Below are positions 5,252-28,124 of a stretch of DNA of 43,408 nt, one piece after another; positions within the stretch are counted from its first letter, which is position 1; each line of letters starts with the position of its first letter. The stretch is taken from positions 102,000-145,407 of the forward strand of contig PS015037.1 in assembly GCA_048213135.1 (NCBI GenBank), given 5' to 3'. The notes under the pieces are model-generated. The model ran no database searches. It was not told the origin of the DNA and saw nothing but the letters and a program-made list of their open reading frames with translations. Position numbers and translations under genes: made by a program. Source of the DNA: Reclinomonas americana ATCC 50394. Its lineage: Eukaryota.

Positions 5252-5874
5252 NNNNNNNNNNNNNNNNNNNNNNNNNNNNNNNNNNNNNNNNNNNNNNNNN
5301 NNNNNNNNNNNNNNNNNNNNNNNNNNNNNNNNNNNNNNNNNNNNNNNNNNNNNNNNNNNNNNNNNNNNNNNNNNNNNNNNNNNNNNNNNNNNNNNNNNNN
5401 NNNNNNNNNNNNNNNNNNNNNNNNNNNNNNNNNNNNNNNNNNNNNNNNNNNNNNNNNNNNNNNNNNNNNNNNNNNNNNNNNNNNNNNNNNNNNNNNNNNN
5501 NNNNNNNNNNNNNNNNNNNNNNNNNNNNNNNNNNNNNNNNNNNNNNNNNNNNNNNNNNNNNNNNNNNNNNNNNNNNNNNNNNNNNNNNNNNNNNNNNNNN
5601 NNNNNNNNNNNNNNNNNNNNNNNNNNNNNNNNNNNNNNNNNNNNNNNNNNNNNNNNNNNNNNNNNNNNNNNNNNNNNNNNNNNNNNNNNNNNNNNNNNNN
5701 NNNNNNNNNNNNNNNNNNNNNNNNNNNNNNNNNNNNNNNNNNNNNNNNNNNNNNNNNNNNNNNNNNNNNNNNNNNNNNNNNNNNNNNNNNNNNNNNNNNN
5801 NNNNNNNNNNNNNNNNNNNNNNNNNNNNNNNNNNNNNNNNNNNNNNNNNNNNNNNNNNNNNNNNNNNNNNNNNN

Positions 5875-8800
5875 CGACGACGACGACGACGACGACGACA
5901 GTGGTGAGTTGGACGCGCCAAGAGACAGTACAAGAGGGGCTGCGCACGCACCACACTGAGCCGAGGCCGTCGGTGATGATGACACCAATCGTGAGCATGT
6001 AATCGGGCGTCGCGCCGCTCTCCAGCTTGCGCACAATCCACGGGTTGACCGACGTGCCGAGGGCCACCTGCCGTCAAGCGAAAGGTCAGCTCACGAGGGC
6101 ACAAAACAGACCACATAGAACACAAAACAGACCATCGTCTGCGTAGAAGGCCGGATGTAGTAGAACGAGTAGCGCACTGGTGCGTCAATGTCGACACCAA
6201 TGGGCGACGTGATGTTGAAGTTGGTCACTCGGGCGGTGCCGTTGATTGGCAGCACACCAACGGCGCCGCTTAGGGTCGGCACAGTGTTTGTCGTCACTGT
6301 CATTGACGACGATACTGTGGACAGCATACGCTGGTCAACAACGAGAGAAAAAAACACGACACATGAGAGAGTGCAAGTGCTCGAAACTGGTATCCCATCC
6401 AGCAACAGTGACATTGGCATGGAACGTGTACGTCTTGCCAGGCGAGAGGACGCCAGGCAGCGGGCGCAGTCCGGTGGTCTTGCCGTCACTATTGTACACA
6501 AACGAGAGGTTTTCGTTGGGCACGCGACGGCCAAGATCGTCTGCGCACGAAACAATGGCGGTGAGTTCATCCGACCATTTTTCAGCCAGTGGCAGCTGCA
6601 CCTGCACACCTTCCATCCACAACGAGTACGAGGCTTGCGACGCCTGCAAGTCAGTCAGCGTCGAGTTGAAGGCCACTTGCACGGCGTTGGGTGTCAGTGT
6701 GTCAATGCGTGGTGAGCCGCCAACTTGTGGCTGTGATAATCATCATGAGCAACAAGCACAACACGGGCAAAAAAAGAACTCGGTGTACAAAAAGAAGACG
6801 CGCTCACCATGTCGAGAAGCAACGAAAATGCTGATCCATACTCCAAACTCGTGGCTCCACTGGCAGAGCGGCGACCGCGTTGTACTGTCACCGAGAAAGT
6901 ATAGCGACCGCTCACCATCTGTTCCGCCGGCACATTGAACACACTGCTGGTTGCCAATGCCGGCAACGGGAATGGACACGAGGTGGGCGATTGAGTGGGT
7001 GAGCTGAAAGAGCACTGCCACGTGTAGAACGTGGTCAGCGTCGCCACCCAGGAGTGGCTGGCACTGGGGTCGGCAACAAACGCCTCCAGCACAACCGATC
7101 GACCGGCGGCCACAGTGCCACCACCCGCTATCGACACCTCCAGTGGGCGGAACACTGATCAGAAGAAAAGGAAGACACAAAGTGAGAAATGTGATATGCT
7201 GGGAGAGAGATGTGCCTCGCGTGCGCGCCCTCCACTAACCGTGCACATCGACCTCCCAGCCGTATCCCTGGGTGATGGAGTCACTGGAGAAGCGCAATCC
7301 AAACGACGAACCTGCGGTCACATGCAAATCAGTCCAACGTTCAAGCTGCCACCGATATCCTCATAACACGACTGGCATGTAACGCAACCAACAGACAACT
7401 CCATCTGAATCGCATCGCTGGACAGCGACGCTGCCGAACCCGAGTACTGCTTGATGAGGCTAGTGATCGAAAAGGTGTTGTCGCTGTACAGCGACAAAAT
7501 ATCCTTGCCCAACTCCGTGTCCAGACGACGAACGTGGAAGTACATGCTTTGTGCAACGGTGGGCGCAGGAGAGATCTGTCAATCCAGATTCAGTGAGTCG
7601 CTCACTCGCATTCTTGCCAGATGCGACAGGAGGGAATCGCAAATGAGTGCTCACCAGCAGCGACCAGCTGCAGTTCAAGTTGGCCGAGTATCCAGTCATG
7701 CCGTCACTGCCGTCATTGATAATGTTTGTAGTACCGTGTGCCACTTGCAAATCTGTGCGACCAGAGCACGTCGGAGTCGCACCGACTGTACCACAACAAA
7801 AGAATGAATGAGCAACGGCGGCACATGTAATAATAACGCGCGTAGACGACAAGCGTACCGATGGTCAATTGTGCCGTGCCGACTTTGGCGTAAACCGGCG
7901 ACACTCGGAAGTGTGAATGGCACACAGAGTAGACGCTGCCGAGCACCGGCGCCGCGTCCACCATGACCACCAGCTGCGACGTTGTCGACAGCGAAGTCTG
8001 CATGGTGGTGGTGAGGCGACCTGCGCCAGTACCTGTCGTCGTGCACGTGTTGCCGGGTTCCAGAGTGACATTGTTGACGGCGTTCAAAAACGTGCCGCTA
8101 ATCGTCAGCAAGCTCGACCGGACGTTGGCCACCAATGTGCCCGGCGAGAAACTCGTCGTGTTGAGGCCCACATACAGACGGCCAGTCAGGTAGTAGGCGT
8201 TTGTGGTGGCACCAACACTCGGCTTCTGGCACAAGTAGTACACGCCGCTGGGGATGGCACCAGTGGTGACAGTCAGCACCGTCGTACTAAGGCCTGTGAT
8301 GGAGCTGGGAGCGGCCGGGACGACGCTCGAGCCGGCAACGAGCGTCCACTGGTTGCACGATGTCGAGGACAGGATGAAGGCCGCAGAATCAGTGGTGAGA
8401 TTGGGTGTCGAGCAGCCTGACAGCGTAACCGTCGTCGGACTGGTAGACGGCTGCACAATGTTCGGGGACAGCGCGTACATCTCTGCGCGAGTACGGATGT
8501 GTGTGTGAGGGAGAGGGAGTAAGCAAGCAAACGCTGCGTGCTTACCATTGATTCCGGCGAAACGAATGCGGTTGTTGCCCTGTGAAAGTGTGTATGTTTC
8601 AGTCCACTTTTCGCGCAATGCACTCCCATCGCACTACAGCCAGACGACGCACCCAGTCCATCACAAGGGCGCCTCCATTCTCTCGCAGGACAAAGCCGCG
8701 AATACTCTGGAATCTCGAAAGAATGGCTGAGGCGTCGGTGGAGCCCGCAGCAGTCGCGCCAGCGAATGGTCCCATGGCACCTGCGCGGTCACATTGCAGA

Positions 8801-11800
8801 GTCGGCGGCGCATGCATGGAGGAGACTCACGGCTGTTTTGCGAGGTTCGCTCACCAAAGTTGTTGCCGATCATGACGCGGCGATCGGTGGTAACGAAAAC
8901 GTCGGAGTCGGGGTTGCGAGACCACACCACCAGTGGATTGCCACTGGAATTCGTGATGCCTTTGCCCGCTGTTTGCGCGACCGTTCCGCTAAGTGCGTAC
9001 GGATACACAGTTCCTGTGTGGAAATAGGCCCAAGGGTGAGAAGCGGGTAGTGTGCCACGCACGAAAAAAGGCACCAATATAGCACAGATGCGCACCGCTC
9101 ATGTCCACATAGCGAACAAATGCGTTTGGTGCATTGCCATTGTCGGCAACAATCAGCCGATTGCCGGTGACGGCGCGCACGAATATCATCTGAGAAATGT
9201 TCACAAACGCTGCCACACTGACGCGACCGACTTGACTGCTGCCGGTGGCCTGGCCAACAAAGGCACTCAGTTGCCCTGTTCATGCATCACCTCACATAGA
9301 TCAGTAACAAGGCGAACAGAGGGGAAGCCTCTCAAGAGCTGAGCGCGTACCTGTGGTCATGTCGAACTTGCGGATGCGAATGCTTTTCTGCTCAGCAAAT
9401 ACGCACACATGGCGCGTGCAATGAGAGCCACGCTACATAGCGCCTACGAAGATAGCAGTGCACGCAACATCGGAGACGTAGAGGACGTTGGATCGCTCGT
9501 CTAGCGCCACCGCAGTCGGAGTGGTCAATTGTGCGACGGCCGCCGAGCCAAGAGTAGTACCGGCGACACCATTGCCGACAATTGTGCTCACCATGCCTGA
9601 AACGCGCACCAAGGTGAGAGACACTTATGTACTTGCAGAAGGGCGTGCCCAGCTCATCGCACGCACCGAGAGCGGTCATCTTGCGGATCGAGTGATTCTG
9701 CGAGTCGGCAATGTACATGGCGTCGGTTGAATCAATGGCCAGCTGCTGTGGCTGATTGAACTGAGCCAGCGAGCGATCGCCATCGGCGCGACCGGCGACA
9801 CCAGTGCCAGCAAAAGTGGACACGCGACCATCAAAGGTGATGCCGCGGATCACGTGATTCAGTGAGTCGGAAACAAAGACGTAGCCGTCGGAAGCTTCCA
9901 CCATGCTGGCCGGCGTGTTGAACGCGGCGGCCGTGAGTAGTCCATCTGTGTAGCCACTGGCGCCAGTGCCTCCAATGGTGCACACGTTCGGGAGCGGTGC
10001 TGCGTGCATCGGTAAAATGTGTCGTCGTCAGCAAGGAGAGAAGAGAGCGCAACAAAAGTATACGTGACGCAACAGATTTGGAACGCGCCCACGTCAATGT
10101 ATGGAAGACCCGGTGACCAGCGGACACACAGGCGCCCAGCAGAGGTGCCTGTTGGCGAGCCACGAATCCAGAAGGCGACGTCTTGCGGTGAGCGCCACAA
10201 CGAGTAGAGGGTGCTGTACATCGAGGCCAGTGGCCAGCTGGCGTCGAGAGTCGGGGCCAGTGCGGATGGGGTGCTGCACGAGGCGGCGAGCACCAATGCG
10301 TAGTTGGTCTGCAAGTCGTTGAAGAGATCGGGCAGACCCGCGCCGGTCAGGCGCAGCGTAAAGTACGAGGTTACGCTCTGCAGCAAGCGATAAGGGGAGA
10401 CAACGCCGGTCACCACGGCTGCACACCACAAATCACTGGATGAGTGCACTGAGGAGAGAGCGACTGTCGTCGACAGACAGATTTGCGTCGCCACACGAAC
10501 CGATGCGGAACACAAAGGCGAACTGATACTGCCACGAGGAGTTCCAACGAACGCACAACGTGTAACTTCCACCGGCGGCACCAAGTGCATTGATTGTCAG
10601 CGTCATGGAAGTTGAGCTGGTGAATGTGCTGCTGACACTGGTGTTGGGGACGGGAGTTGGCGAGACGCAGGTGGTTGAGGAGATGAGGAACGCTTGCGAG
10701 TCGCCCGAGACATTCGACATGCCAAGGCCAGTGACGGTGGACGAGACGCCGTTGATGGGCTGCATCGCCGACACTGACATGGTCGCAATCGTACCTGCGC
10801 AGGCGGCAACAACAGTGGGATTGGTGCTCGCTCGCAACAACAATGACCGCGCTCGCACGTACCACCAATGCCGATGATGCGAATGGCGTTGTTGCTCTCG
10901 TCGGCGACAAATACAGAACCTTTCGACCAGTATGCCGACGATATCATGCTGGCGGGTTGGTTGAAACGAGCCGTGGCGGCCGCGCCATCAACATTGCCTC
11001 CGGCACCCGACAGACCAGCGAGTGTCGTCACCACGCCTGCACACAAACACCGACACAGGGGGGTGAATTCTTTTCCCGAAAAAAAGCGCGCACAGGCGAC
11101 GGAGACATGCGTACCGTTGGGACCGGGCGAGAGCACACGAATGAGATTGTCGGAGAGGCTGCTGATGAGAATCTCGCCACCAATGCCGCGTGCGAGACGA
11201 TTCAGCTGGCCGAACGTGGCAGTTGTCAGCGCGGCGCCGTCGGTGTTGCCCACACCACCAGTGCCGGCAATAGTTGTCACCAGGCCTGATGAATGAATGA
11301 ATGAACAAAGCGTGAATCAAACCGGTAAAATGCATGAAACTCAAGTGTGCAACGTACCGGCAGTAAGGTCCAGCATGCGGATGCGGTTGTTTCCCGAATC
11401 CGCCACCGCCACAGTGTAGTCTGTCAGCGACACGATTCCGCAGGGTGCGTTAAACTTGGCCGACAGCAGCGGGCCGTCGAGGTAGCCTGACATGCCAGAC
11501 GTCTGACCGGCCAGCGTCGTCGTGTCGGCAGTGATCACGTCGACGTAGCGAATGACGTTGTTGCCCTGCGGCACGGGCAAGGACGGTCGGCACGGAACGC
11601 ACGCACGTAGTCAAGTGACGATGACGATGACGGAGCAACGTACCGAGTCGGCGACCAATAGATTGCGCAGTCGGTCGAATGCAAGTGCCAGTGGACCGGC
11701 AAAGCGAGTGAATCCTCCGTTCAGATCGAGGTAGCCGGTCGTGCTTGTCGACGCGCCGCCAAGAGTGTCCGTGTACACTGCACGTGGTGCGTGAGTTATA

Positions 11801-14800
11801 ACTGGCAAGCAGGAGACGCAGACAGAGGCAGCGTGGCACTCACTCGTATTCAAATCAAGTCGACGAACACGATTCTGCATTGCACACAGACAACGTGAGC
11901 TGACACACACAAAGAAGTGCGACTAACGAACGACGCACCGCCTCAGCAATGTAGAGAATGTTAATGTCTGGATTGTAAGCCACGTCCGTCGGCGAGCGGA
12001 ACTTGGCATTGGCGACGAGCGGGGTGGTGGGATCGTGCAGCTCGTTGAAAACATCACCGATGGTGCCAAACTGTCCCGCCACGTACATCAGAGTGCCGGC
12101 CATGTTCACTCGGCCAGCGCCCTGACCGCCACGCATCGACACCCACATGTCGCCTTGCGACAGCTCAGTGAGCCCAATGTACCCAGCGGCTGCAGTGGTG
12201 ACCACTGTACCGACGTTGGCCGCTCCTGTGCACACACAATGTGAGATGTGTGCCATGACAAGACCGCGTATGGCGACAGCACGAGAGACACACACCGACA
12301 AAGAGCGCCGACGCGGCAGCATACGGCGACGACGCACTCCAGCGAACACAGAGGAAGTATTGGCCCGCAGTGAGACCGGAGCTGTTGACCACCAGCTGCA
12401 GCGTCGACGTGTTGAGTAGCGACTGCACAGCGACACTGCTGGCGCCAGCCGGCGTCGGCACTGCATTCTGGCACGTGGACGCAGCCGTGACGAGAACGAC
12501 CGACGAGGTATCGCCCGACACATCCACGAGACCGCTACCGACCAAGCGGACCGATTGCGCAGAGCCGGCAACAATGGTCATTGGCGTGGCTTCGGCGTAC
12601 GCTGCACGATGTGTTCGAATGTAAGTCGATGGAAGAAAAAAGAGATTAGCAAACTCACTGACACGTACCAATGTTGAGGTAGCCGAGCTCACGGTGGCCG
12701 CTCGTGGTGGACCAGCGACCGCACAAACGATACACGCCACTGGCGGCACCGGCGGCATTCACTGCCAGCGTGATGGAAGTGGTCGACACCAATGTCGACG
12801 TGATGGACACACCGCTAATCCCCGACGGCGAGACACATGTGCCGGAGGAGCTGATGAGAAGGAAGGCCCGAGTATCTGTGGAGACGTCCACAAGGCCACA
12901 GCCGACAAGCGTCACCGTCTGTGCAGCGGCCGCAGCTATCGCGGGTGGACTGACAAACATGACGCCGGGTCCCGCAGAGACGTAGCGAATGCGGTGATTG
13001 TTCAGCTCGGTGACAAGCACGTTGGCGTCGGGTCGGACAGCGACGCCAGATGGACCATTGAACTTGGCCACATCGGCGTTTCCGTCGGCGAATCCCGCCG
13101 TTCCCGAACCGGCATATGTGTCCACCGTGCCCGATCCTGCGGGAGACACCAATGTCAGCGAGCAAGAAACGCTGATGGTCGTACGAGCGTCGACGTAAAC
13201 GTACCGACGGACAAAGCACGGCGCAGCTTGTGGTTGCCCTGTGGGAGAGAAGGTGAGGGAGCGGGAGAAGGGCAAAGAGGGGACAAAGAGTGAGGGCGCA
13301 ACAGAGTCGGCGATGAAAATGTGTCCGCTCGGCGCCACGGCGATGCCGAGGGGCGACGAGAAGCGAGCCGACAACGGCACGCCATTTGTGCTTCCCGGCG
13401 TTCCTGCCGCACCGGCAAACACAGAGATTTCACCTGCATGCAGGAAGGGAGACGATTCAGTGCATTGCACGGAGGCTCAACGACCAGTCGAAGCGTTTTT
13501 CTTTCGCAACTGTTGCCGTAATTGATTCGGCGGAGGGTGTGACCGCTGCTTTCGGCGACAAGCAGCGTCATGGGATTCGAGGACAACCAAGCGAGACCGC
13601 TGGGACCATTGATCGACCCAGGCAGTGCGCCGTCCGTGGTGGCTCCTGCTCCGTTACCGGCAACAGTGGAGACAGTTCGTGCCGTAATGTTGAGGCGCCG
13701 CAGTCGGTGCGACGGCTGTGCAATCAGTATCAGCAGCTACCCACACAGCATCTCGACTAAAAGAGAATGCGAGGAAGGAAACGCACTGTGCCGTCGGAGA
13801 TGAGGAGAGCAGTGGCCGCCGATGTCTCCAGCACGATAAAGGTCGGGCGCTGGAACGTGGCCGATGTCGCGGCACCGTCGGTGGTGCCGGCGGCGCCAGT
13901 GCCCGCAATCGTCGACACGTAACCCACCAGCAGTTGAATGACACGAATCACACGACCAGAGGCCTCCGACACATACAGGAGACTGTTGGTTTCATCGAGT
14001 GCCAGACCCCACGGCTCATTAAAGGTGGCCGCGGTAAGGAAACCGTCGGTGGAACTGGCAGCGCCGCCAGCCAGTGTTGCCACTGTGCCGCTGTTGTTGA
14101 TTGTGCGAATTCTGTGGCTTCCCTGTGCGCGCAAAGGTTTGAGGATGGAAGAGAAAGCGCGAGGATGCACAGAAGACGGCCTCACGTACCGAGTCGGCCA
14201 CATACATCATGCCCGTGCTGGCCGAGATGACAATGGAGGTGGGCGTGTTGAACGACGCACTCTGCGCACTCCCGTTGGCGGTGCCCGCAGTGCCGATACC
14301 AGCCAGCGTGCACACAGCGAGTTGCTCTGTGCAAAAACAAACAGTCAACACAAACAAACTCATCATGCAGCAGCAGGTGGTGGCTCACCAATCGTCAGAG
14401 CACCAACGTCAACGTACGGACTGTTGGGTGACCAGCGCGCGCACAAGCGATACGAAGCACGCGACGCGCTGCTGGCGCTCACCGACAGCAGCAACGACGA
14501 CGACCCCTGGTACTTGGTCGTGATGGTGATGCTCGACTGCACGAACGAGCTGCGAGCGCGCACGTGCATGTGTGAGAAAGAGAGAGAGAAAGTAACGGGA
14601 GACGATGCGTGAGCATGGCAATCCTCACCACGACGAGGTGCCGAGCACAAAGGCGTTCTGCTGTTGCGACACGTCGGGCAGGCCGACGCCCGAGAGCACC
14701 ACCGGCTGCGTGTCCACAGCCAGCACCGTGCTGGGGCTAATCGAGGTCACCGAAGCCACGNNNNNNNNNNNNNNNNNNNNNNNNNNNNNNNNNNNNNNNN

Positions 14801-15810
14801 NNNNACGTCACCACGTAGCCTGCAAGTGAGTGAGTGAAAGTGAGTGAGGAGGTGATGCGGTGAGAGAGGGAGAAGGAAGAGTGCTGCTGCGCAAACCGTC
14901 GGGAGTGATCTCTCGCAGGGCGGCATTGTTCTTGTCGTAGACCAGGACGCCACCCGACGCCCACGTCGCACTGCCACTCGGTGTGTTGAAGCGCGCACTG
15001 GTGGCCAAGGCGTCGAGGAAGCCAGTGGTGGCGGAGGTGCCGGCGAGTGCGGCAATGGTGCTGCTGTTGGCGCTGACACGGCGCACCTGTTGATTCGAGT
15101 CGGAGATGTTGATCACGCCGCTGGTGGGGTCGACAGAGATGCCGGTGGGTCCGTTGATGCGGCCCGGCAGTGCACCATTGACGGTGGCTGCAGTTCCGTC
15201 GCCCGCCAGCGACGACACGGTGGAGTACAGCAGCGACAACTTGCGGAGGAGGTTGCCGCCCGTGTCGGTGACCAGCAAGTCGCCGCCGGTGTCCGCCGTC
15301 ATGTACTGAATCGAGTTGAAGACGGCGGAGGTGAAGGCTCCGTCGGTGGCCGCGCCGGCGGTGGTGCCGGCGACCAGCGTGATGGTGCCGTCGGGCGCGA
15401 TCTTGCGGACTTGTGCGTTGCCCTGCATGCATGCAAACACGTACATGTTCGGATTCAGTATTTCGTGGAGAGGCGAGTTGTCTCACTCCCTCTCTCTCCC
15501 TCTCTGCTCACCGAGTCGACGACGTAGAGATTGCCGAGCAAGTCTGGCACGAGTGCGCGGGGAGTGTTCAGCAGCGCCAGCTCACGCGGCCCGTTGCGGT
15601 TGCCGGTGGTGGAGAGGGTGCCCGCAACAGTGTACACATCGCCCGAGGGCGTGATGCAGCGCACCACGTGCCCCACCTGCTCGGTGGTGCACACTGCACC
15701 CTCGGAGGTGACAGCCACACCAAACGGCTGCGTGAACTTGGCGCTCCCCGCGTTGCCGTCTGCACCACACTCATGTTTTGGTATTGCTGTTTTGGGGCAA
15801 AGATGCAAGC

Positions 15811-15846
<36 letters not shown>

Positions 15847-16820
15847 CAGAGTAACCCGCTGTGTTTGACTGCGCGCCCGCCAGTGGGCACAGGTACGCCG
15901 AGTCGACAAAGACGCTGCCGAGTGACTGGTACATGCCATTCGAGTCCCAGCGCACACACACTTGGTAGTTGCCGGTGACCATGCTGGAGGTGTCGGTGTA
16001 GATCAGCATCTGTGTGGACGTCGACGTGGAGGTCATGGCGCCGACAAAGCCGGGCGCCGGCGACGGGGACTGGGGAGACGGCACCGTGCAGTCGGAGGCG
16101 AGAATGACTGCTCCTGAATCGCCGTCGACGCTCACAAAGTTGCGGCCTTTGATGAGGATGCTCCGATGCGGCAAGCGTGCAATCGCCGACGGTGCGATCT
16201 GGTCGACGGTGGCTGTGGGGGTGGAGAGGGGGTGAGAAGTTTTTTTGCGACAAAACATTGGTTGCGAAAAACATACCGACACTGCGCGTCGTGAACTTGC
16301 TGCCGCGTATGCTGAGTGGGGCGTAGAATGGCTTGCCCTCGCTGCCTGCTCCCTGACATTGTGGCACTGCGAAAGGGGAAACGAGAAAGAGAGAGAGAGA
16401 GAATGACCGTTGTGCCAGTTTTGGTCATGCGTGAGCGGTGTGCGAAAACACAACAGCGAGAGAGATTCCAGTGCGCACCAACGGACGTGTAGGCGGCCCA
16501 TGCACTGTCGGCAGCGGGCGTCAGTGTGGTGCGCATACGCAGGCCAGGCGTCGGTGTCGCGCGCCACGGCACATCGAGAGGACACTGCAATAAACAAGGA
16601 TGAGGGACCACTGGTAACCAAATATGGTAGTTCTGTCGTTCTTCTCGCTGACTGCACTCCACGCAATCACACACTTGACGCCACGCACCTCATCGTGTGC
16701 GTCGACTGTCGCCGTCCACGACACACACAAGGCGACGACGGCAATAAAGAGAACCACGACGATCGCGCTTGCGCATTGTTGTCGTGTACGTGATTGGCGG
16801 AACCGAACAGACACCGGCAT
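5875..16820 (-). CDS. 5' (extracellular) part of a giant polycystin-1/REJ-like receptor: signal peptide, about 8 Ig/IPT-like modules, 4 NHL-repeat blocks, CUB domain, REJ domain (multi-exon; interrupted by gap 14761-14804)
   Basis: ATG at 16820 followed by a hydrophobic signal (AIVVVLFIAVVALCVSW). About 35 GT-AG introns join exons in frame, giving many NHL blades (e.g. AKFNGPSGVAVRPDANVLVTELNNHRIR, AFNTPASMVEASDGYVFVSDSLNHVIR), a CUB (YSANLNCSWSL...RRLDTELGKDILSLY...LRFSSDSITQGYGWEV, ~7240-7785) and REJ motifs (LRPLPGVLSPGKTYTFHANVT; NTVPTLSGAVGVLPINGTARVTNFNITSPIGVDIDAPVRYSFYY; YMLTIGVIITDGLG). Exons between 16215 and 16690 are uncertain. Confidence 0.85.
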
Positions 16821-17230
16821 TGTTTTTTGCCTTACTTTTTCTCTCTTTTTCTGCTGCTTGTTGACGGCCAGCAGCGGCTCACTGCCACAAACAAAGAGGG
16901 GAGGGAGGGGGGAGAAACGAGAAAAAAAGGTGAGCCACCACGCAACGCCACTTGCCGTGTGTGTGTGTCGTTATGAACCTCTCTATTCAGTATACCGCAA
17001 TCACCGGCTTCTCACACTCTCTCTCTTGTGGGGGGACGCGACTGTGCCTGCGAAAATGGGACAGCGACAGGCACGGAAAGTAGCGATAAAGTGTGGCTTG
17101 TCTTCTCTCCTCCAGCACACACGAAAAGAAAATTGCTAACGTTCGCCTCGCCTTTGGTGGAAAGTGGCGTCGGCAGTTCGTCGACCCACACGAACCGTCA
17201 ATCACTGCTGATCACAACAATCACACACAA
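16821..17230. promoter_or_regulatory. Probable bidirectional promoter region between the divergent PKD1-like and RING genes
   Basis: 410-bp interval between ATG 16820 (-) and ATG 17231 (+). Positional inference only; no specific motif identified. Confidence 0.4.
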
Positions 17231-18883
17231 ATGGCGACGGCGATGGCGGAGGCCTCGTCCTCGTCACGACCACCCAGTCGACGTTGCGTCACACGCTGCC
17301 TGCCCCCTCCTCTCCTCTCTCCTCTCCTCTTGCTCCACGAATGCTATTTTCGTCCTTACGCGCGCGCAACCGACACACACAGCCTCGTCTCGTGGTCGTC
17401 GCATTCCACAACCGCCCTGGTTGCCTCCCGCTGTGGTGCTCACCCCCGAGGCAAGTCGACATCGACCGGCGCCGCCTTCTCCACCTGCCGCGCCCTCTGA
17501 GCTGGAGAGCTTTGGAGGATCACTCGCCGACATTGCGCGCTCGTGTCGCGATCATGCGGCACGGCGCATGCAGGCGCGCCGCCAGCAGTGGTATGAGTCG
17601 TACCAGGAGAACGCCGCTGTGGCCGAGGCGTCGCGCGTGACGTCACGCCGGCAGCAGCTGTTGGCGGAGGCCGAGGCTGCGTGGAATGGCATGTCGTTGG
17701 GGGATGTGTTGCGCTCAGCAGTGCCTCCTCCACCTCCTGAGCGAGTGTCGACTGCTGCATCAGTGCCAGAGGAGAGACATCATCCTGTACAGCAGCAGCA
17801 GCAGCAGCGGCTGCGACAGAGACAGCAGGCGGATGATGTGTGGGGTGGACTGGGGTTGGGTGACCTGCCAGTGGTGCGTCACGGACATGATCATGACAGA
17901 CCGCGCTCGTCGTCGGCGCAACGCTCTGAGGATCGGCCTCGGCGGCAGCAGCAGCAACCGCCGCCGCAGCCGTCGTCGTCGTCGCAGCGTGCTCTTCGTG
18001 AGGACAGCGATGATGTGTGGGGTGGGCGAGGATTGGCTGAGGTGCTGGTCCCGTCGCGCCCGAGCCGCTTTGTTGTCGAGATGGAGAGCATACGACGTGC
18101 TAGTGCGGTGGAGCAGCAGGAGGCGGTGCAAGTGGCGATGCCGAGGCGGCGACAGCCGCGCCCACCACCACCATCGCCACCACCACCACCAGAGCGACAT
18201 GAACCAGAACATCCGAGGAGATGGGCGAGTTCTGCTGTGCACGACTGGGAGGACCAGCCTGTACGCCGTGGTGGTGGTGGCAGTAGTTCACGTGCGGTGG
18301 AGCAGCAGCACGGGTTTGAGGAGGAGGCGGTGCGTGCGCGTGGCTATTACGATCTCAGTGCGGATGGCATTCGTCGTCAGCAACGGCGTCTGGCCGCACA
18401 AGAACGCCGTGCCGCGCAAGCCTACGCACCGCACTTGCCGCCCGCACAGGCGGCGTCGGCAGCCGCTCCCGCCGTCAATCGCATCATGTCGGACTTTGGT
18501 GAGCCGCCACCGCCACCGCACAGAGTGTGTGTCATTGCGCGAGGGAGAGAGACTCAAGACCTTCTTTTTCAATCGCAGTGCCCGACACGCAACCCGACTT
18601 CTTCTCGTACGAGAATCTGCTGGCACTGGACCGGCCGTTCCGCGACGGCCTGCCCGCCGCCCTCTTCAAGGCCATCCCGCGCGTCAAATACGACCCCGAG
18701 AAGCATCGCATCAGCGACTCGTGCACTATTTGCATGGAGCCGTACAGCCCAGGCACCACGGCCAAGATGCTCGGCTGCGGTCACCTGTACCATCGCGACT
18801 GCATCGCCAGCTGGTTCAAGAACAATGTGCGGTGCCCGATGTGCCGCTTCAACTGTCACACGAACTCGCACGACCCAACATGA
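17231..18883 (+). CDS. RING-H2 (C3H2C3) E3 ubiquitin ligase with long disordered N-terminus
   Basis: Exons 17231-17282, 17383-18498, 18579-18883 join in frame. C-terminus has SYENLLALD followed by CTICMEPY-x9-LGCGHLYHRDCIASWFKNNVRCPMCR. Confidence 0.9.
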
Positions 18884-18957
18884 GTGAAACATCGCGATCC
18901 GTCCTGTTGTCACGCAATTGTCTTGTTTGAGCTACGTAAGTGAGAGGGAGGGAGGGC

Positions 18958-20333: not shown

Positions 20334-20725
20334 ATGAAAGCGCGCAGCTGTGTGACTGTGCTGTGTGTGCTCGTGGCCTGTGCGGTGTGCGTGCATGTGG
20401 TCACTGCGGCCATGTGTGGTGGCTCGGTGCGTCCAACACACACAAGTAACAGTCTTGTGTGTGTCTCACTATGTGTGTGTGCGTGTCTCACATGTATGCA
20501 GCCACCGACCCCCGGAGCACCAAACACTGCTGGCATTTACTCCGCCCCGCCTGTGTTTGTCAAGTCTGTGGTCAATGGAACTCTGTGGAAGGCACGCAGC
20601 ACTCTCTCTCTCTTGCGCACATGCTCTTCCCTTCCGCGACTGAGATAGGTGTGATTGCAGGCCGGTCAAGGCGACGACTCGATTTCTCTCGTGCATGTCT
20701 ATGGCACTCCGTATAGTGCGTGCTC

Positions 20726-20760
<35 letters not shown>

Positions 20761-20781
20761 CNNNNNNNNNNNNNNNNNNNN

Positions 20782-20824
<43 letters not shown>

Positions 20825-22073
20825 AGTGAAAGAATGCACGAGGGAATATGAGAGAGCAATGGCAGAATGCTAAAGGAATAATGAGGGAGCGATGGAGTGT
20901 GCGTGTGAGAAGAAATTGCGCTGTGGTGCTGACGTGTGTGACGATGCACGTCCGTTCCAGGACTACCCGGTGGTCGTGGTCTATCATCCGGATCCGGGCT
21001 TCGGCTTTGCGTTTGCCAATGTTGGTTGTGAGTAATTACCAGTCGCTTTCCTTTATCGCCTCCTCTGTATCTCAAAGGAGGGACGTACGACAGGGTCTGG
21101 CTGGATCGGCAGCATCACCGGCTTCTCGTCGAATCAGCTGGCCATCAGCGAGATTGGCGTGTACTTTAGCGACGAAACGTGGGGCGACGAGTCGTACTTT
21201 GGCGTGCCGTTTGTCGTTGCGTATCGTCTTCCCTTATCCCACATGCGCACCTCTTCGTGCTGCTCATGTCTTTCTTTGTTGCAGTACCTGCTGCGCAACA
21301 TTCTTCAATTCTCGTACACGGTCGACGACGCCGCTTCGTACATGGCCTCGGTGCAGCGCACGTGCCGCCTGCTCCTCGGTGTGGGCGACGGCAAGATGGG
21401 CTACTTCCGCGGCTTCCAGTACTCGCACTCTGTCCTCAACGAGTACGACCCGCTCAATCTGGAGCCTCTGTACGACTGGTTTGTGATCGCGATACACATT
21501 TTTGATTCACATGCCACCTCGTTCTCATCCATTCCGCGCGACACAGGCATCCACGAATCAGTTGCGCCTGTTATTCAAGCCTCGTTTTGTCGCGATGCAT
21601 TCTCACTTTCTTCTTCTTCTTCCGCAATTGTCACGCACAGACAACACGGTGTACTGGTGAGCGGAATGCGAAAGAGTCTTTTCGCGCAACACACTCACAT
21701 AGTTGTCGGGCGCAGGGGAATGGACTGGCTGTGCCCCGGCTACAACAAGCGTCTGGCGCAGGAGATCAACAGCAAGTGGGGCCACGTGACGCCGGAGAAC
21801 ACCATCAGCGACATTGTCGCGTACACGGCCACTGGTAACCTGCACGTTGCCGTGTACGACCTGACCAACCAGGCCATGTATGTGGCCAACGCACGCGGAA
21901 CCACCGAGTCCGGCAACGAGTGGGCCTACGAGCGTCAGTACGGTGAGCGAGAGAGAGAGAGAGCAGCAGCAAACGACGGTCTCATCATCCTCGTCGTCTG
22001 CACAGTGTTCTTCGACATGGCCAAGCTGTTCGCCGAGCCGCGCCCGAAGCTGCCGACGCTGTTGGCGCAGTAA
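20334..22073 (+). CDS. Secreted Ntn-hydrolase, peptidase C45/acid-ceramidase-like (similar to Dictyostelium dcd1-type proteins), copy 1; middle exons lost in gap 20762-20781
   Basis: Signal peptide. Spliced VHVYGTPY, NVGWSGWIGSITGFSSNQLAISEIGV, GVPFVYLLRNILQF, RTCRLLLGVGDGK, WHPRINNTVYWGMDWLCPGYN, TGNLHVAVYD, AYERQYVFFDMAKLF. Collinear with copy 2. Confidence 0.85.
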
Positions 22074-22672: not shown

Positions 22673-23113
22673 ATGCGCGCTCCGATCTCGCTTCTCCTGG
22701 CGTGCCTCGTGGCCACCGCACTCGTGTGCTGCTTCACCGAGTCGGCATATGCCGCGTTTTGCTCCGGCAAGGTGCGCGGAGTGCACAGAGTGAGAGAGTG
22801 TGCAATGGCCGCCAACACATAGCACTGACCCCACGTTTTCATTAGCCTCCGACTCCCGGTCAGCCCAACACAACTCCAGTGTACACTGCTCCGCCCAAGT
22901 GGCTCAAGTCGGTGGTCAATGGCACTTTGTATGAGGCCGGCCAGGGTGATGATAGCATTTGGTGAGTGTGCGAGAGGGAAGGGAGTGGGAGAGAGAGAGA
23001 GAAGGAGGATGTGCGGAGAGATAGCAATCTGTGCAGACGGACGCACCCACATTGAGAGTGAGAGAGTGAATGTGAGTGAGAGTGTGAGAAGGAGGTTGTG
23101 TGGGGAGAGAGAG

Positions 23114-23151
<38 letters not shown>

Positions 23152-25020
23152 AGAGAATGAGAGAGACAGCAACCTGTGCACACAAGCACTCTCTCTCTCT
23201 CTCTTTCACACACACAGTGACCTTTGCCTCACCGCTCACTATGCATGTGCTTGCAGGGTGGCGCATGTGTGGGGCGATTTCTACAGTTGCGTCATGCATG
23301 ATGCATTCGGCTCTTGTGTGACATTCTCCGATCCTTATTTTGTTTTGTGCGCCAGGCATGGGATACGCGTACGGCACGCTGCTGAAGGACAAGATGCTGC
23401 AGTTCTTCCCGCAGGTGTGGCAGCACATTGAGGATCAGGTGACCACGGCGGACTACGTCAAGGCACGTGTGTGTGGATGCTCGGCTTGTGCTTTCAAGTT
23501 GTGTCGCGGCTCATTGTGTGTGCGTGCAGGAGCTGCCCAAGTGGCTCGGCGACCTGATTGCCAATGCGGGCTTGGATGTGGCTCTTGATGCGCTCTGTTG
23601 CGTTGTCTAGTCACACACTGTGTGCGTCACAATGCTGACGTTCGTGTCGTCGTTGCAGGGGAGGTCACCAAGGCGTACACGCCGGACTATGTCGAGCAGG
23701 AACAGCGTGGTATCGCTGATGGTGCGGCTTGAGTTGCATTGAGGAGCTTTGCAGAGCGTGTGCTGACTGCTGGTGTGTAGCCTCTGGTGCCGACTTCAAG
23801 ATGATTCGCCGCATCCACTTGATTGGCGAGATCACCAAGGGCCGCTGCTCGATGGCCGGCATGTGGGGACGCACCACCAAGGATGGCGGCCTCATTCAAG
23901 TGCGTGCGCTGGATTGGGACACTGATGGTGCGTGTGAATAAGGGAGAAGGGAGGAAGGGAGAGGGCGGGAAGGGATAAGGAGCAACATGCACAGGAGACC
24001 TATTCCGACTCTCTGTGCTGACACACTTGCTCCGCAGGCCCCTTCCAGTCCTTCCCCGCCGTGATTGTGTACCACCCTGACCAGACTCCGGACGGCCGCT
24101 ACGGCAGCGCATGGCTCAACGTCGGATGTGCGTCCTCACTCGTCCGCACTCCTTTCTTGTTTACCCCTCTAAATCGCTGTCGTGTNNNNNNNNNNNNNNN
24201 NNNNNATCGCGTGCTGTGTTTCTGTATTCGCACTGACCTTGTGTACACTATGCAGTGGCTTCCAGTACTCGCACTCGTCGCTGAACGTGTTCGATCCGCT
24301 CAACCAGCAGCCGCTCTACGACTGGTTCGTTGTGTTGTTGCTGTGCCACTCCATGTGTATGTGTGCGCTCACGAATGGCGATGTTCTGCAGGCACCCGCG
24401 CATCAGTTTCGCTCATTACTCCCCCTCGCTTGTTCGTCACATCACTCACACTACCTCTTCCTGTTCCACCCCTGCCACACAGACGACACCGTGTACTGGT
24501 CAGTGCCATTGCATCGTGCGCTTTCCCTCTTTGCAATCTCCTCACCCCATCCTTCACACAGGGGCATGGACTGGCTGTGCCCGTCGTACAGCCAGCGTCT
24601 CAGCGAGCGCATCACCAACCTGTACGGACAGGTGACACCGGCCAACGTCATCTCCGACATTGTGTCGTACACGGCCACTGGCGACCTGCACGTGCGTCAC
24701 CACTGCCTGCTCCTTTCCTGACACCTCCGTCGTCGTCGCTGACATGAAGTCTTCACGCTGACAGGTGGCGGTCTACGATCTGTCGCACAATGGCCTGTAC
24801 GTCGCCAACGCTCGTGGTGCGAACGAGTCGGGTCCCTTCGAGGCGTACAAGCGCCAGTTTGGTGCGTCATATATCGCCCCTGTCACTCTCTCGTCCTCTG
24901 CACCCCCGACTGACTCTTTCCTCCCCCCCCCCTGCGTCAACAGTGTACTTTGACCTGGAGAAGACGTTTGCCGAGGCTCGCCCGGGCTCGCAGCTCATCG
25001 ACCAGCAGTCGGCACTGTAA
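22673..25020 (+). CDS. Secreted Ntn-hydrolase, peptidase C45/acid-ceramidase-like, copy 2 (tandem paralog); exons lost in gap 24186-24205
   Basis: Signal peptide; VAHVWGDFYSMGYAYGTLL; EQRGIADASG; putative nucleophile Cys at 23846-23848 in GRCSMAGMWG; VRALDW motif; same C-terminal motifs as copy 1. Confidence 0.88.
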
Positions 25021-25133: not shown

Positions 25134-26918
25134 TTACTCGCGCTCGGTGACGGACCACTCGGGCTTCACCTCGACAATCTTGCCCGGATTGAGGATGTTG
25201 AGTGGGTCGAGGGCGCGCTTCAGACGTCGCATGAGCTGCACGGCGGGCGCACCCAGTTCCGGCTCCAGGAACTCCATCTTGCCGATACCGATGCCGTGCT
25301 CGCCAGTGCACGTACCGCCCATGGAGATACCACTGGGAGTGCGGAAGGAAGGGTGAAGATTGTACAAAGAGGAGAGAGAGAGAGAGAGTGATTTGACCAC
25401 TCACCGCAACACCATGTTGCGGTTCAGTCGGTGAGCCTCGGCGGCCTCGCGCGCATCTCGCGGATTAAACATCTGCACTCAGGGGGTTGGTGAGTTCGCC
25501 CTTTCCACAACAGCAGAATCATGTGCACCAACGCAACGATGCACACGTGGAAGTTGCCGTCGCCCACGTGGCCAACAATCGGGCAGAACAAGAAGCTTGC
25601 GTCCAGCTCCTTCTTCGTGGCATCGATGCTGTGCGTCACAGCAGTGAGCAGACACTTCTCAGCAGGTGCACAGAGAAATTGACAACGCACCAATCGGCCA
25701 GACGAGAGATGGGCACGGCGACATCCGTGGCCATGACTTCGCGGTCGGGATCACTCACTTGCACCGCCCAGAAAGCTGCAGAGGAAATGAGGCGAGGTGT
25801 GCAGTGATTGTCGTGCGATCCTACGAACCATGCTTGCGTGCCTCCCACAGCTTTTCACTCTCCTCATGCGACTTGCTCCACACAAAGTCGTGGGTCGTGT
25901 ACCGCTTGACCTGTTGTTACACGGACGTCAGCACCAATCACCAAAAAAACACACGCAGCTCAACTCGACGCAACAATCTCACGGACGACCTCGATATCGT
26001 GCTGCACGTGCGGCTCAGGGCCCGTGAACTTGAAGCTGCCCGACATGTGAGCACGCAGCTCCTGCCACTCGCCGCTTCGACAACGAAATAACGCAACAGA
26101 ATGCACGGCGTCTCTGCCATGTTGGTGTCGGAGTAGGCATTCACCGCGCGCACCATGTGCTCGTCAAACAGCTCGACAGCGCCCAGTTGCACGTCGCGCT
26201 GCAAGATCTTGATCACGGCATCGCACGCATCCTTCACGGAGGCGAAGCTGACCACGGCCACGGCCTGCGCGATTCACGGTGAGTGCACTGTCAACTGCTC
26301 TTCTCGATAGTGGAATGCACACGCAAACCTGGTACTTCGGGATCACACGCAGACGCAGCGTGGCCTCGGTGATGATGCCGAGTGTGCCCTCTGAGCCCAC
26401 AAACAGACGCGACAGATCGTATCCTGGCGGTGGGAAGAAAGGGTCGTCAGCGAGTGCCAGGAAGGAGCACAAGATTGTGGTGATCGCACCTGCACTCGAC
26501 TTGCGAGCGCGCTGTCCCGTCTTCACAATTGAGCCGTCGGCCAGCACGACGGTCAGGCTGATGACTTGGTGCTTCCTGGAGAGGAAGGAGGAGGAGGGAG
26601 AGGAGAAGGAGAAGGAGGAGAAAAAGTACTTAGTAATCAAAAGCGCAACGACATCGCTGCGGAAACAAACACAGATGGCACAACGAGAGAGAGAGAGAGG
26701 AAGGTGTACGCGACACTTCGCGTGCAGAACGGGCGAAGGACAAAGAATGTGGTGCTCAAACAACGCCGGTCGAGCAAGGTACAGTCGGAAGTGGGTACAG
26801 AGTGAGTACAAGAGCAATGACATCGGTGCACGAGGACAGGGAAAGTGGCATATGACGCAAACCCCACAGCAGCGATGTTGAAATGAGAGTAATGCCACGA
26901 GGTGAGAAAGGAAATCGT

Positions 26919-26954
<36 letters not shown>

Positions 26955-28124
26955 AGGAACAGGGAGCAAGATTGCAAGAGTCGCCGAAACGGCAGAGGAA
27001 GCGATGCGGGATGCAGCTGTCGACCACAGAGAGAGTCGGAAGACGGTACAGAGTGACCGAAAGAGCAACGACGTCAGCGCAAAAAAACACGAGAAAAACA
27101 GGAACAGTGAAAGAATGAAGGAAATGCAAAAGAAGCTGAGCGTGTATCATGATTGATATAGCGAGAACAGCGACAGGGAACGAGCGCAGCGCCACAAACA
27201 ACAAAGTCGAGCACATAGTGAGACAGAAAGAATGCACGACATCGGTGAGGAGAAAAGAATGCAAGCGAAACACAGTGTATGACTCCCTCTCCTCTTTACT
27301 CCAACACGCAACATGGTTCCATAACGCACGGCATTCGTCCCACTGCACGAGGTGGCACACATGCCGCCGATGCACGCACCAGGCGCCGGATCCTGCACAC
27401 ACACACACACACACAAACAATCAGTTCACCAACCAGCTAGCTCGCTTCCCCGCCCCTTCGCAAGCAACGCAACCACTCCCAAAAAGAGGCCATACTGCTT
27501 GCAGTGCTCATTGAGGTGCATCCAGCCAACACCCGGCTGCACCACACAGTCGGCGTCGTCGACATTGACTCGCAAGATCTTGTCCATGCGGCTGAAATCC
27601 ATGCACACACCGCCTTGCGGCGCCGTCGTGTGACCCTCCAGACTCGTGCCCGCAGCGAAAGGAATGATCGGAATGCGCCATCGTGCACACACCTTGACAA
27701 TCTCCGAAACCTGACGCCATGACAATCTCTCTCAATCACCAGCAATGCACACACACACAATGCACGATGCATGCATACAAGGAAAAACCTCTTCAGTGCT
27801 CTCTGGCCACACCACCGCCTGCGGCCACTCTGGCAACGCACACCCTGTTCTCTCCTTCCCGCGCTGCTCCAGATCCGCGCGCAGTGTCGAGTACTTGTCG
27901 CGGCCGAGCAGTTGCGAGAGTTGCCGGTGTGCCTCGGGGTACACGTTCTCAAACGGCGACTTTTCCGGGTTGTGATCGGCGCGCCACACGTCACTGTGGC
28001 GAGGAGGAGGAGGAGGAGAAGGAGAAGGAGGTGCGGTCACTGAGGCAGCGACGGCTGTGGTGCCGACAGTCAGCACCAGAGCAGCGGTGCTGGTGGCCCA
28101 CGCCAGCGCGCGTCGGAAGAACAT
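25134..28124 (-). CDS. LDHD: Mitochondrial FAD-linked D-lactate dehydrogenase (cytochrome) / FAD-binding oxidoreductase type 4; 12 exons
   Basis: 11 introns give a complete frame with [91 protein letters not shown] and ALDPLNILNPGK. N-terminus MFFRRALAWA resembles a mitochondrial targeting peptide. Confidence 0.93.

Follow-up and report, generated by a model that had tools for sequence, protein, structure and literature searches.

Is the sequence at the start of an intron tied to the last base of the exon before it? The question is raised by a 43,408-nucleotide (nt) stretch of Reclinomonas americana ATCC 50394 DNA (contig PS015037.1, positions 102,000 to 145,407 of the forward strand; hereafter the window, in whose own numbering all positions are given), where the span 7858-15511 forms the interior of a single intron-dense, minus-strand gene for a protein with NHL repeats. 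A sequence-only reading of that span held that introns had been copied along with the repeated domains, and that their 5' splice sites (donors) had co-evolved with the last exonic base, position -1, homologous introns switching between ordinary donors and GTTGCG as the codon changed. We found that, across the window and probably across the genome, the coupling of donor type with the -1 base is a property of two donor classes. The proposed co-evolution survives in part: donor type is associated with -1; however, the association is not deterministic, and the class also changes where -1 is constant. Donors are written below with a slash at the exon-intron boundary and with alternative bases in parentheses.

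Two donor classes and the base that precedes them

Our curated set comprises 69 introns from four genes in this one 43-kb window: the NHL gene (36), a D-lactate dehydrogenase (D-LDH) gene (11) and two tandem paralogues (9 and 13). All splice junctions were inferred from protein homology or repeat consistency. Unbiased exon-chaining on codon or Markov scores with bare GT/AG signals missed in-frame introns and chose wrong donors, and was dropped in favour of this guided curation.

Fourteen of the introns, about one in five, begin with GTTGCG, and the base before them is T in seven cases, A in three, C in two and G in two; it is thus other than G in 12 of 14. Among the 53 other GT donors, -1 is G in 45, A in four, T in three and C in one, and the two GC-AG donors both follow G (AAG/GCACGY). 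Over the set of 69 introns, the contrast of 12 non-G and 2 G with 8 non-G and 45 G is highly significant (P = 1.4e-6), and it is more so when low-confidence introns (in the NHL gene, 16688 and 6360) and ambiguous ones (10500 and 7388 in the same gene) are left out (P = 2.1e-7). Within the NHL gene alone, -1 is other than G in four of five GTTGCG donors and in three of the 31 others (P = 0.0027). The association is also seen in the D-LDH gene alone (P = 0.015) and in all genes outside the NHL gene taken together (P = 0.0012); neither paralogue is significant by itself (P = 0.43 and P = 0.15, all by Fisher's exact test). Switching is not independent of -1 in this larger set. Nor is the effect a product of the repeats: it recurs in the non-repetitive D-LDH gene and in the paralogues, and is not special to the NHL repeats.

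The ordinary donor has the form G/GT(GAT)(CAT)G(TC), with G at -1 in 45 of 53 cases and at +5 in 50 of 53; position +4 is C in 29 of the 53, and +6 is T in 33 and C in 15. The second type is H/GTTGCG(T), where H is a base other than G (12 of 14) and a T occupies +7 in 11 of 14. Introns of the two types agree in median length (72 nt) and GC content (0.53), and their CAG acceptors and YTNAY branch-like motifs are alike. As far as predicted junctions can demonstrate it, then, the association holds, it recurs in unrelated genes, cleavage falls exactly at /GT and the GTTGCG introns have ordinary 3' ends.

An annotation-free count points in the same direction. Counting both strands, the window contains 30 copies of the heptamer GTTGCGT, where a second-order Markov model predicts 9.2, and the preceding base is a pyrimidine at 23 of these 30 sites (C 12, T 11, G 4, A 3). 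Nineteen of the sites lie outside the curated introns (for example at 40028, 37418, 19031, 4220, 3556, 2741, 292 and 32757; preceding base C 10, T 5, A 2, G 2) and may be donors of further genes. No description of GTTGCG or GTTGCGT as a splice-site class was found in the full-text literature, a corpus whose coverage leaves subscription journals outside; the motif matches there were oligonucleotide sequences.

Donors of the D-LDH gene

The D-LDH gene (25134..27998, minus strand), for a D-lactate dehydrogenase or FAD-linked oxidase, has 11 introns in its modelled part. It was modelled by homology, and the model is the best of 216 acceptor paths. Its product aligns with homologues from Porphyra and Pyropia (red algae), Sphaeroforma (an ichthyosporean) and bacteria, and with a EukProt transcriptome protein, with no insertion or deletion at any of the 11 junctions. 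It is placed in the family by collinear full-length alignments to P0124, P0123, P0128, P0131 and P0207, gapless at every junction; the domains PF01565 and PF02913 are those recorded for the homologues, rather than the outcome of a scan of the window protein. A metagenome scan with a D-LDH exon returned five loci whose best segments were 35-65% identical to it, and none of them came close to full identity. Protein searches with one exon each of the NHL and D-LDH genes likewise yielded no near-identical sequence.

In order, donors 1-6 read GAG/GTTTTT, GTG/GTTGCG, AT/GTTGCG, G/GTGCGA, CAG/GTTTGC and CT/GTTGCG, and donors 7-11 ATT/GTTGCG, G/GTTCGT, TG/GTGCGT, ATC/GTTGCG and CG/GTGAGT. Five of the 11 are thus of the GTTGCG type, at 27473 (after G), 27312, 26097 and 25974 (after T) and 25537 (after C), and the other six all follow G. 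Conserved residues run across the GTTGCG junctions (YGTM/K, PCIL/FKFTG, FHVCI/MF and LFLGV/DPAPG). We rejected moving these boundaries by a single base in either direction, by which the conserved Met of YGTMK and Leu of PCILFKF would be replaced.

The first donor, at 27788 (minus strand; GAG/GTTTTTCC), has no G at +5, and its junction is set by STEE/VSEIVKVCA, which is identical in the Sphaeroforma homologue. Because that junction is fixed in spite of the missing +5G, very weak intronic donors appear to be tolerated after G. Two donors, at 26328 here and at 14896 in the NHL gene (both minus strand), read G/GTTTGCG(CT), which resembles GT plus two extra T's plus GCG, and each follows G.

At 737 nt, intron 3 of this gene (26576-27312, minus strand) has some ten times the median length, and CT repeats are plentiful in it. 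It contains a second C/GTTGCGC at 26649, 73 nt before the acceptor, which is the normal distance in a short intron; an older short intron may have received an insertion here, or splicing may proceed stepwise.

Matched introns in the tandem paralogues

Paralogue 1 (20334..22073, plus strand; nine introns) has lost its middle in an N gap at 20762-20781, and paralogue 2 (22673..25020, plus strand; 13 introns) is interrupted by an N gap at 24186-24205. Both were modelled on homologues, with gapless junction neighbourhoods, and belong to a conserved, secreted-looking family of ~440-470 amino acids. A Pfam scan returned no match for this family, and a first impression of N-terminal-nucleophile amidases found no support.

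GTTGCG donors occur in paralogue 1 at 21216 (after C) and 21561 (after A), and in paralogue 2 at 23286 (after A) and 23597 (after T), with the conserved residues PFV/YLL and HPRI/N reaching across such junctions. The two genes provide pairs of introns at the same position. Donor 20716 of paralogue 1, an A/GTGCGT (A/GTGCGTGC), corresponds to donor 23286 of paralogue 2 (A/GTTGCGTC); both introns are in phase 1 after a conserved Tyr, and the donors are one intronic T apart. Because these two differ by that single T, a change of class is possible at constant -1. A second pair, 21561 and 24406, reads A/GTTGCG against A/GTTTCG. Paralogue 2 also has ordinary donors after non-G bases at 24128 (T/GTGCGT) and 24692 (C/GTGCGT), the latter in an intron that paralogue 1 lacks.

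Immediately before the second pair of donors, the two paralogues share a 14-nt microexon (21547-21560 and 24392-24405, plus strand) that encodes part of WHPRI(N), a segment conserved in all homologues; it is followed by A/GTTGCG in paralogue 1 and by A/GTTTCG in paralogue 2. Each paralogue also contains a GC-AG intron (20592-20660 and 23463-23529, plus strand) with the donor AAG/GCACG(CT). The first is backed by the alignment of paralogue and homologues; the second, in a variable region, was picked by best homology score.

Recurrent intron sites in the NHL gene

All 13 donor contexts quoted in the sequence-only reading are present on the minus strand within 1 nt; nine of the quoted coordinates are exact, and four are off by 1 nt (true positions 11643, 8652, 12295 and 10500). 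To place them, we built a hidden Markov model (HMM) of the NHL blade, with 55 positions, from eight blade seeds of the NHL gene and iterated it on the protein of that gene, where it found 20 blades of at least 40 bits plus partial closing strands. The ~100-amino-acid modules that alternate with the propellers were aligned with one another. With introns mapped onto these alignments, the recurrences that had been claimed are borne out, and the positions are homologous in column and phase: because the mapping puts the introns at three recurrent sites, we regard their positions as homologous. By this alignment, blades and modules carry introns at three recurrent, homologous sites.

The first site is in phase 0 at the blade boundary (HMM positions 55/1). 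Seven introns lie exactly there: 15423..15511 (TCG/GTGAGC), 14123..14189 (TCG/GTACGT), 13716..13786 (ACA/GTGCGT, an ordinary donor after a base other than G), 13239..13302 (TCT/GTTGCGC), 11566..11643 (TCG/GTACGT), 9388..9468 (GAT/GTTGCGT) and 8580..8652 (TGG/GTGCGT). An eighth, 11875..11938 (GCG/GTGCGT), is two positions away and is followed by an exon of 31 nt. All these introns, and those below, are on the minus strand. The contrast between synonymous Ser codons, TCG/GTRNGY against TCT/GTTGCG within one class of site, is confirmed.

The second site, absent from the sequence-only reading, is in phase 1 at HMM position 13 and is shared by nine introns (14896, 13510, 11843, 11357, 11114, 9666, 9350, 9095 and 8854), with intron 13204 nearby at position 11. 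Also new are intron 13786 and, within this second site, intron 13434..13510 (A/GTTGCGA), the fourth GTTGCG donor at the recurrent sites of the gene, called from repeat consistency only. The third site, in phase 1 at module ends, holds five introns in one column: 14327..14388 (G/GTGAGC), 12602..12668 (G/GTACGT), 12226..12295 (G/GTGTGT), 10419..10500 (G/GTTCGT) and 10000..10073 (T/GTTGCGT). Intron 7786..7858 (G/GTACGC) is two columns away. For intron 10500 an alternative donor, T/GTGGCG at 10494, would put the intron two residues outside the shared column. One more GTTGCG donor lies in the CUB-like part of the gene (7312..7388, G/GTTGCGT); it is ambiguous, with an alternative phase-1 donor, T/GTTATG, downstream.

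Introns can be inherited through internal domain duplication, and modules flanked by phase-1 introns are the pattern of exon shuffling. The NHL gene resembles such cases in that the column and phase of its introns recur from blade to blade and that its module ends carry phase-1 introns. It differs in that retention is partial, with eight phase-0 boundary introns and ten position-13 introns against 20 blades of at least 40 bits, and in that no intron sequence similarity is left as proof of common descent. The homology of the positions in column and phase is upheld; the claim that introns were copied with the domains, however, is not supported as it was stated, since the intron bodies show no similarity above background and it is carried by position and phase.

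Exceptions to the coupling

Two GTTGCG donors follow G: 27473, where the junction is set by the conserved Val of LFLGV/DPAPG, and the ambiguous 7388. In turn, a base other than G precedes eight ordinary donors: GTGCGT in four cases, GTGAGT in two, and GTTTCG and a low-confidence GTCGTG in one each. Given these exceptions on both sides, the coupling is statistical rather than a switch driven by the codon.

A shifted or bulged register as a possible basis

What could link the two parts of the splice signal? On balance, we think it somewhat probable that the GTTGCG class represents the known compensation between exon and intron at the 5' splice site, carried here by an invariant heptamer that is read in a shifted or bulged register. 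The starting point would be the general negative coupling of an exonic -1G with the strength of the intronic 5' splice site. The carrier, GTTGCGT, would be the consensus from -1 to +6, GGTGCGT, one base out of register, with six of seven positions identical. Since the heptamer matches GGTGCGT in this offset, +1G could take the pairing role of -1G with the small nuclear RNA (snRNA), and +3 to +7 that of +2 to +6, while cleavage would stay at GU. Position -1 would be freed from the requirement for G, and its bias towards pyrimidines would be like that of ordinary donors at -2. The two donor states would be interconvertible by an indel of one T in the intron together with a (possibly synonymous) change at -1.

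Several observations are consistent with this proposal. H/GTTGCGT and HG/GTGCGT, each of eight letters, are the same in all but one, and the architecture expected of a shifted or bulged donor is found, with GT-T-GCGT against the consensus GT-GCGT, T at +7 in 11 of 14 (compare the ordinary +6, with T in 33 and C in 15 of 53) and junctions set by homology. A pyrimidine precedes GTTGCGT at 23 of 30 sites, and it precedes GGT(AG)(AC)G(TC) at 77 of 109 (T 44, C 33, A 19, G 13); where the latter motif is used as a donor, that base is -2. The ordinary donors that lack G at -1 are those closest to the consensus, which fits the register reading. With the standard 5' end of U1, ACUUACCUG, C4 and A3 pair with +6/+7 rather than +5/+6 in seven of the 14 GTTGCG donors, at energies of about zero; the U1 of the host may differ.

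Other observations weigh against compensation through a changed register. The mean pairing of GTTGCG donors to the standard U1 end is -0.8 kcal/mol in any register, compared with -5.8 kcal/mol for the others; because pairing this weak is predicted in every register, standard-U1 pairing alone fails to explain the class. A pure shifted copy of the ordinary donors predicts GTTACGT and GTTGAGY, and neither is seen among the 14, though both GTACGT and GTGAGY are frequent among ordinary donors. At -2, the curated GTTGCG donors (C 7, T 5, A 2, G 0) come nearer to the ordinary -2 than to the ordinary -3, which a pure shift on the exon side does not predict. The energy of a shift or bulge alone leaves the rarity of G at -1 unexplained. 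To these points must be added the basis of the junctions, homology or repeat consistency throughout, and the size of the sample, 69 introns from a single 43-kb window.

Alternative explanations

The near-zero pairing to the standard U1 end and the invariance of the class keep alive another explanation, which we rate as rather unlikely: that U1 is non-standard here, its 5' end differing from ACUUACC, or that a second U1 variant is fully complementary to GUUGCGU, giving two snRNA-defined classes. An altered end with G-C at positions 5-6, which would match the preference for +4C and +3G, would be one example. Ranked by mean pairing with the 69 donors, the standard end is 504th of 4096 hexamer variants and pairs with the GTTGCG class at -0.7 kcal/mol; a GC at positions 5-6 of the end gives -7 to -8 kcal/mol for both classes, and an end complementary to GUUGCGU reaches -11.3 kcal/mol for the GTTGCG class. 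The invariance of GTTGCG(T) and the +4 C of 29 among 53 ordinary donors point the same way, and in man there are U1 snRNA variants whose 5' end is altered. However, the scan of guide ends favours GC-rich ends by construction and, because GC-rich guides always score better, it serves as a lead rather than as evidence. An Rfam scan of the window gave no match at the gathering score, and so no snRNA gene in the window, and to our knowledge the 5' end of U1 is almost universally conserved. It is possible, although we incline to doubt it, that two donor codes of the major spliceosome operate side by side, with about one-fifth of introns on an invariant GUUGCGU that has near-zero complementarity to standard U1 and for which the exonic G is dispensable. 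If so, either recognition in a shifted register would be obligatory as a major mode, or the 5' end of U1, or of a second U1, would be non-standard; one base change in the guide would turn an end that reads GGUGCGU into one that reads GUUGCGU.

The original proposal, that domain duplication carried the introns along and that each donor afterwards co-evolved deterministically with the -1 base, the codon driving the class, is improbable. It accounts for the homologous positions and phases and for the Ser codon contrast within one class of site; however, the coupling is also present at non-homologous introns of unrelated genes, there are two G/GTTGCG and eight H/ordinary donors, a paralogous pair changes class while -1 is constant, and no residual similarity links the intron bodies. 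Much less probable still is an artefact of the gene models, with real splice sites at a nearby GT or at non-canonical boundaries. The junctions are indeed inferred, and two GTTGCG calls are weaker (7388, which is ambiguous, and 13510, which has repeat consistency only), but nine GTTGCG junctions of the D-LDH gene and the paralogues yield conserved residues without an indel, a 1-nt shift would cost the Met of YGTMK and the Leu of PCILFKF, and homology scoring ranked the GTTGCG donor above the alternative donors that were tried. Finally, the GTTGCG introns might be a separately acquired family, introner-like or of the minor spliceosome, whose flanking base reflects the insertion site or other machinery. 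The invariant 5' end would fit this, yet we find it scarcely credible. The intron bodies share no sequence past their first 7 nt (mean local score 7.7 within the class and 7.8 to other introns, maximum 13), for which reason an introner-like element was rejected, and in length, GC content, branch-like motifs and CAG acceptors they are like other introns. A U12-type intron, with a /RTATCCTT donor and a TCCTTAAC-like branch site, was likewise rejected: the donor is GTTGCG, no /RTATCCTT donor is seen and the last 45 nt contain an ordinary YTNAY and CAG.

Comparison with known donor variation

A study of 30 eukaryotes among animals, fungi and plants reports a negative coupling between -1G and the intronic 5' splice site (bioRxiv 10.1101/2021.07.14.452117). 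The window behaves as described there, in that donors without G at -1 are the most constrained in the intron, while those with it tolerate GTTTGC, GTTCGT, GTTTTT, GTCAGT and others. It differs in that the compensating sequence is one invariant heptamer, GTTGCGT, instead of the ordinary consensus from +3 to +6; this class lacks the +5G otherwise present in 50 of 53 donors, and supplies 12 of the 20 donors without G at -1.

Shifted and +2/+3-bulge registers of U1 are experimentally established in man, where they are rare (Roca and Krainer; Tan et al. 2016, PMC4856993). The latter source puts the proven bulge and asymmetric-loop registers at an estimated 1.5% of human 5' splice sites and counts the shifted register separately. 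Like the human sites described there, the GTTGCG donors consist of /GU, one extra base and the consensus +3 to +6, with cleavage at GU; and like the human test site ACA/GUCAAGUAU (PMC4856993), most of them have a base other than G at -1. They differ in that the class is invariant and makes up 14 of 69 introns, and in that its register is inferred from sequence, with a pairing energy to standard U1 near zero. With U12-type introns, the class has in common that a second, highly conserved donor stands beside the major one; unlike them, it has another donor sequence, no distinct branch-site box, and ordinary acceptors, length and composition.

What is new here is the abundance of the GTTGCG(T) class (14 of 69), its invariance and its near-zero complementarity to standard U1; compensation within the 5' splice site and non-canonical registers were already known. 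A fixed and abundant class of this kind would be a natural system for studying how a 5' splice site could be defined with U1 pairing and cleavage out of register, and also the trade-off between the exonic and intronic parts of the splice signal. In practice, gene finders trained on a single +5G donor matrix would overlook ~20% of the introns of this genome. Natural matched pairs for minigenes are offered by the repeats and paralogues: introns at one position that differ in donor class, with -1 either shared or changed.

The NHL gene and its surroundings

The eukaryotic DNA of the window has a GC content of ~56-61%, and its introns are short. The large multi-exon NHL gene (5875..16820, minus strand) was curated by reading in three frames, followed by a chain search limited to donor coordinates. 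All 36 introns of the resulting model are GT..AG, and its reading frame is free of stops. It starts with an ATG at 16820, is interrupted by an N gap at 14761-14804 and enters another (5252-5874) with its 3' part.

The predicted product opens with a signal-peptide-like N-terminus; four NHL beta-propellers follow, in alternation with the ~100-amino-acid modules, and CUB-like and REJ-like parts come last. Two exon translations match the NHL repeat (Pfam PF01436, cut-off 20 bits), one at 30.5 and the other at 21.6 bits. The Pfam match to REJ is weak, and that to CUB reaches E = 0.094 at best. The label Ig-like, which the modules had been given, found no support in Pfam: three module exons matched no family, Ig-fold profiles included, at E<=0.01 or E<=0.1, apart from a sub-threshold hint of CBM_35 (E = 0.056), the sole Pfam trace in these modules.

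Within an exon of the gene, in codons for YTVAGT, lies a T/GTTGCGG (15628, minus strand) that is apparently unused as a donor and has G instead of T at +7. Head-to-head with the gene is a long, intron-free open reading frame (16977-18887, plus strand) rich in Gln, Arg and Pro, whose C-terminal end (about 18700-18880) carries a RING-H2-like zinc-finger motif.

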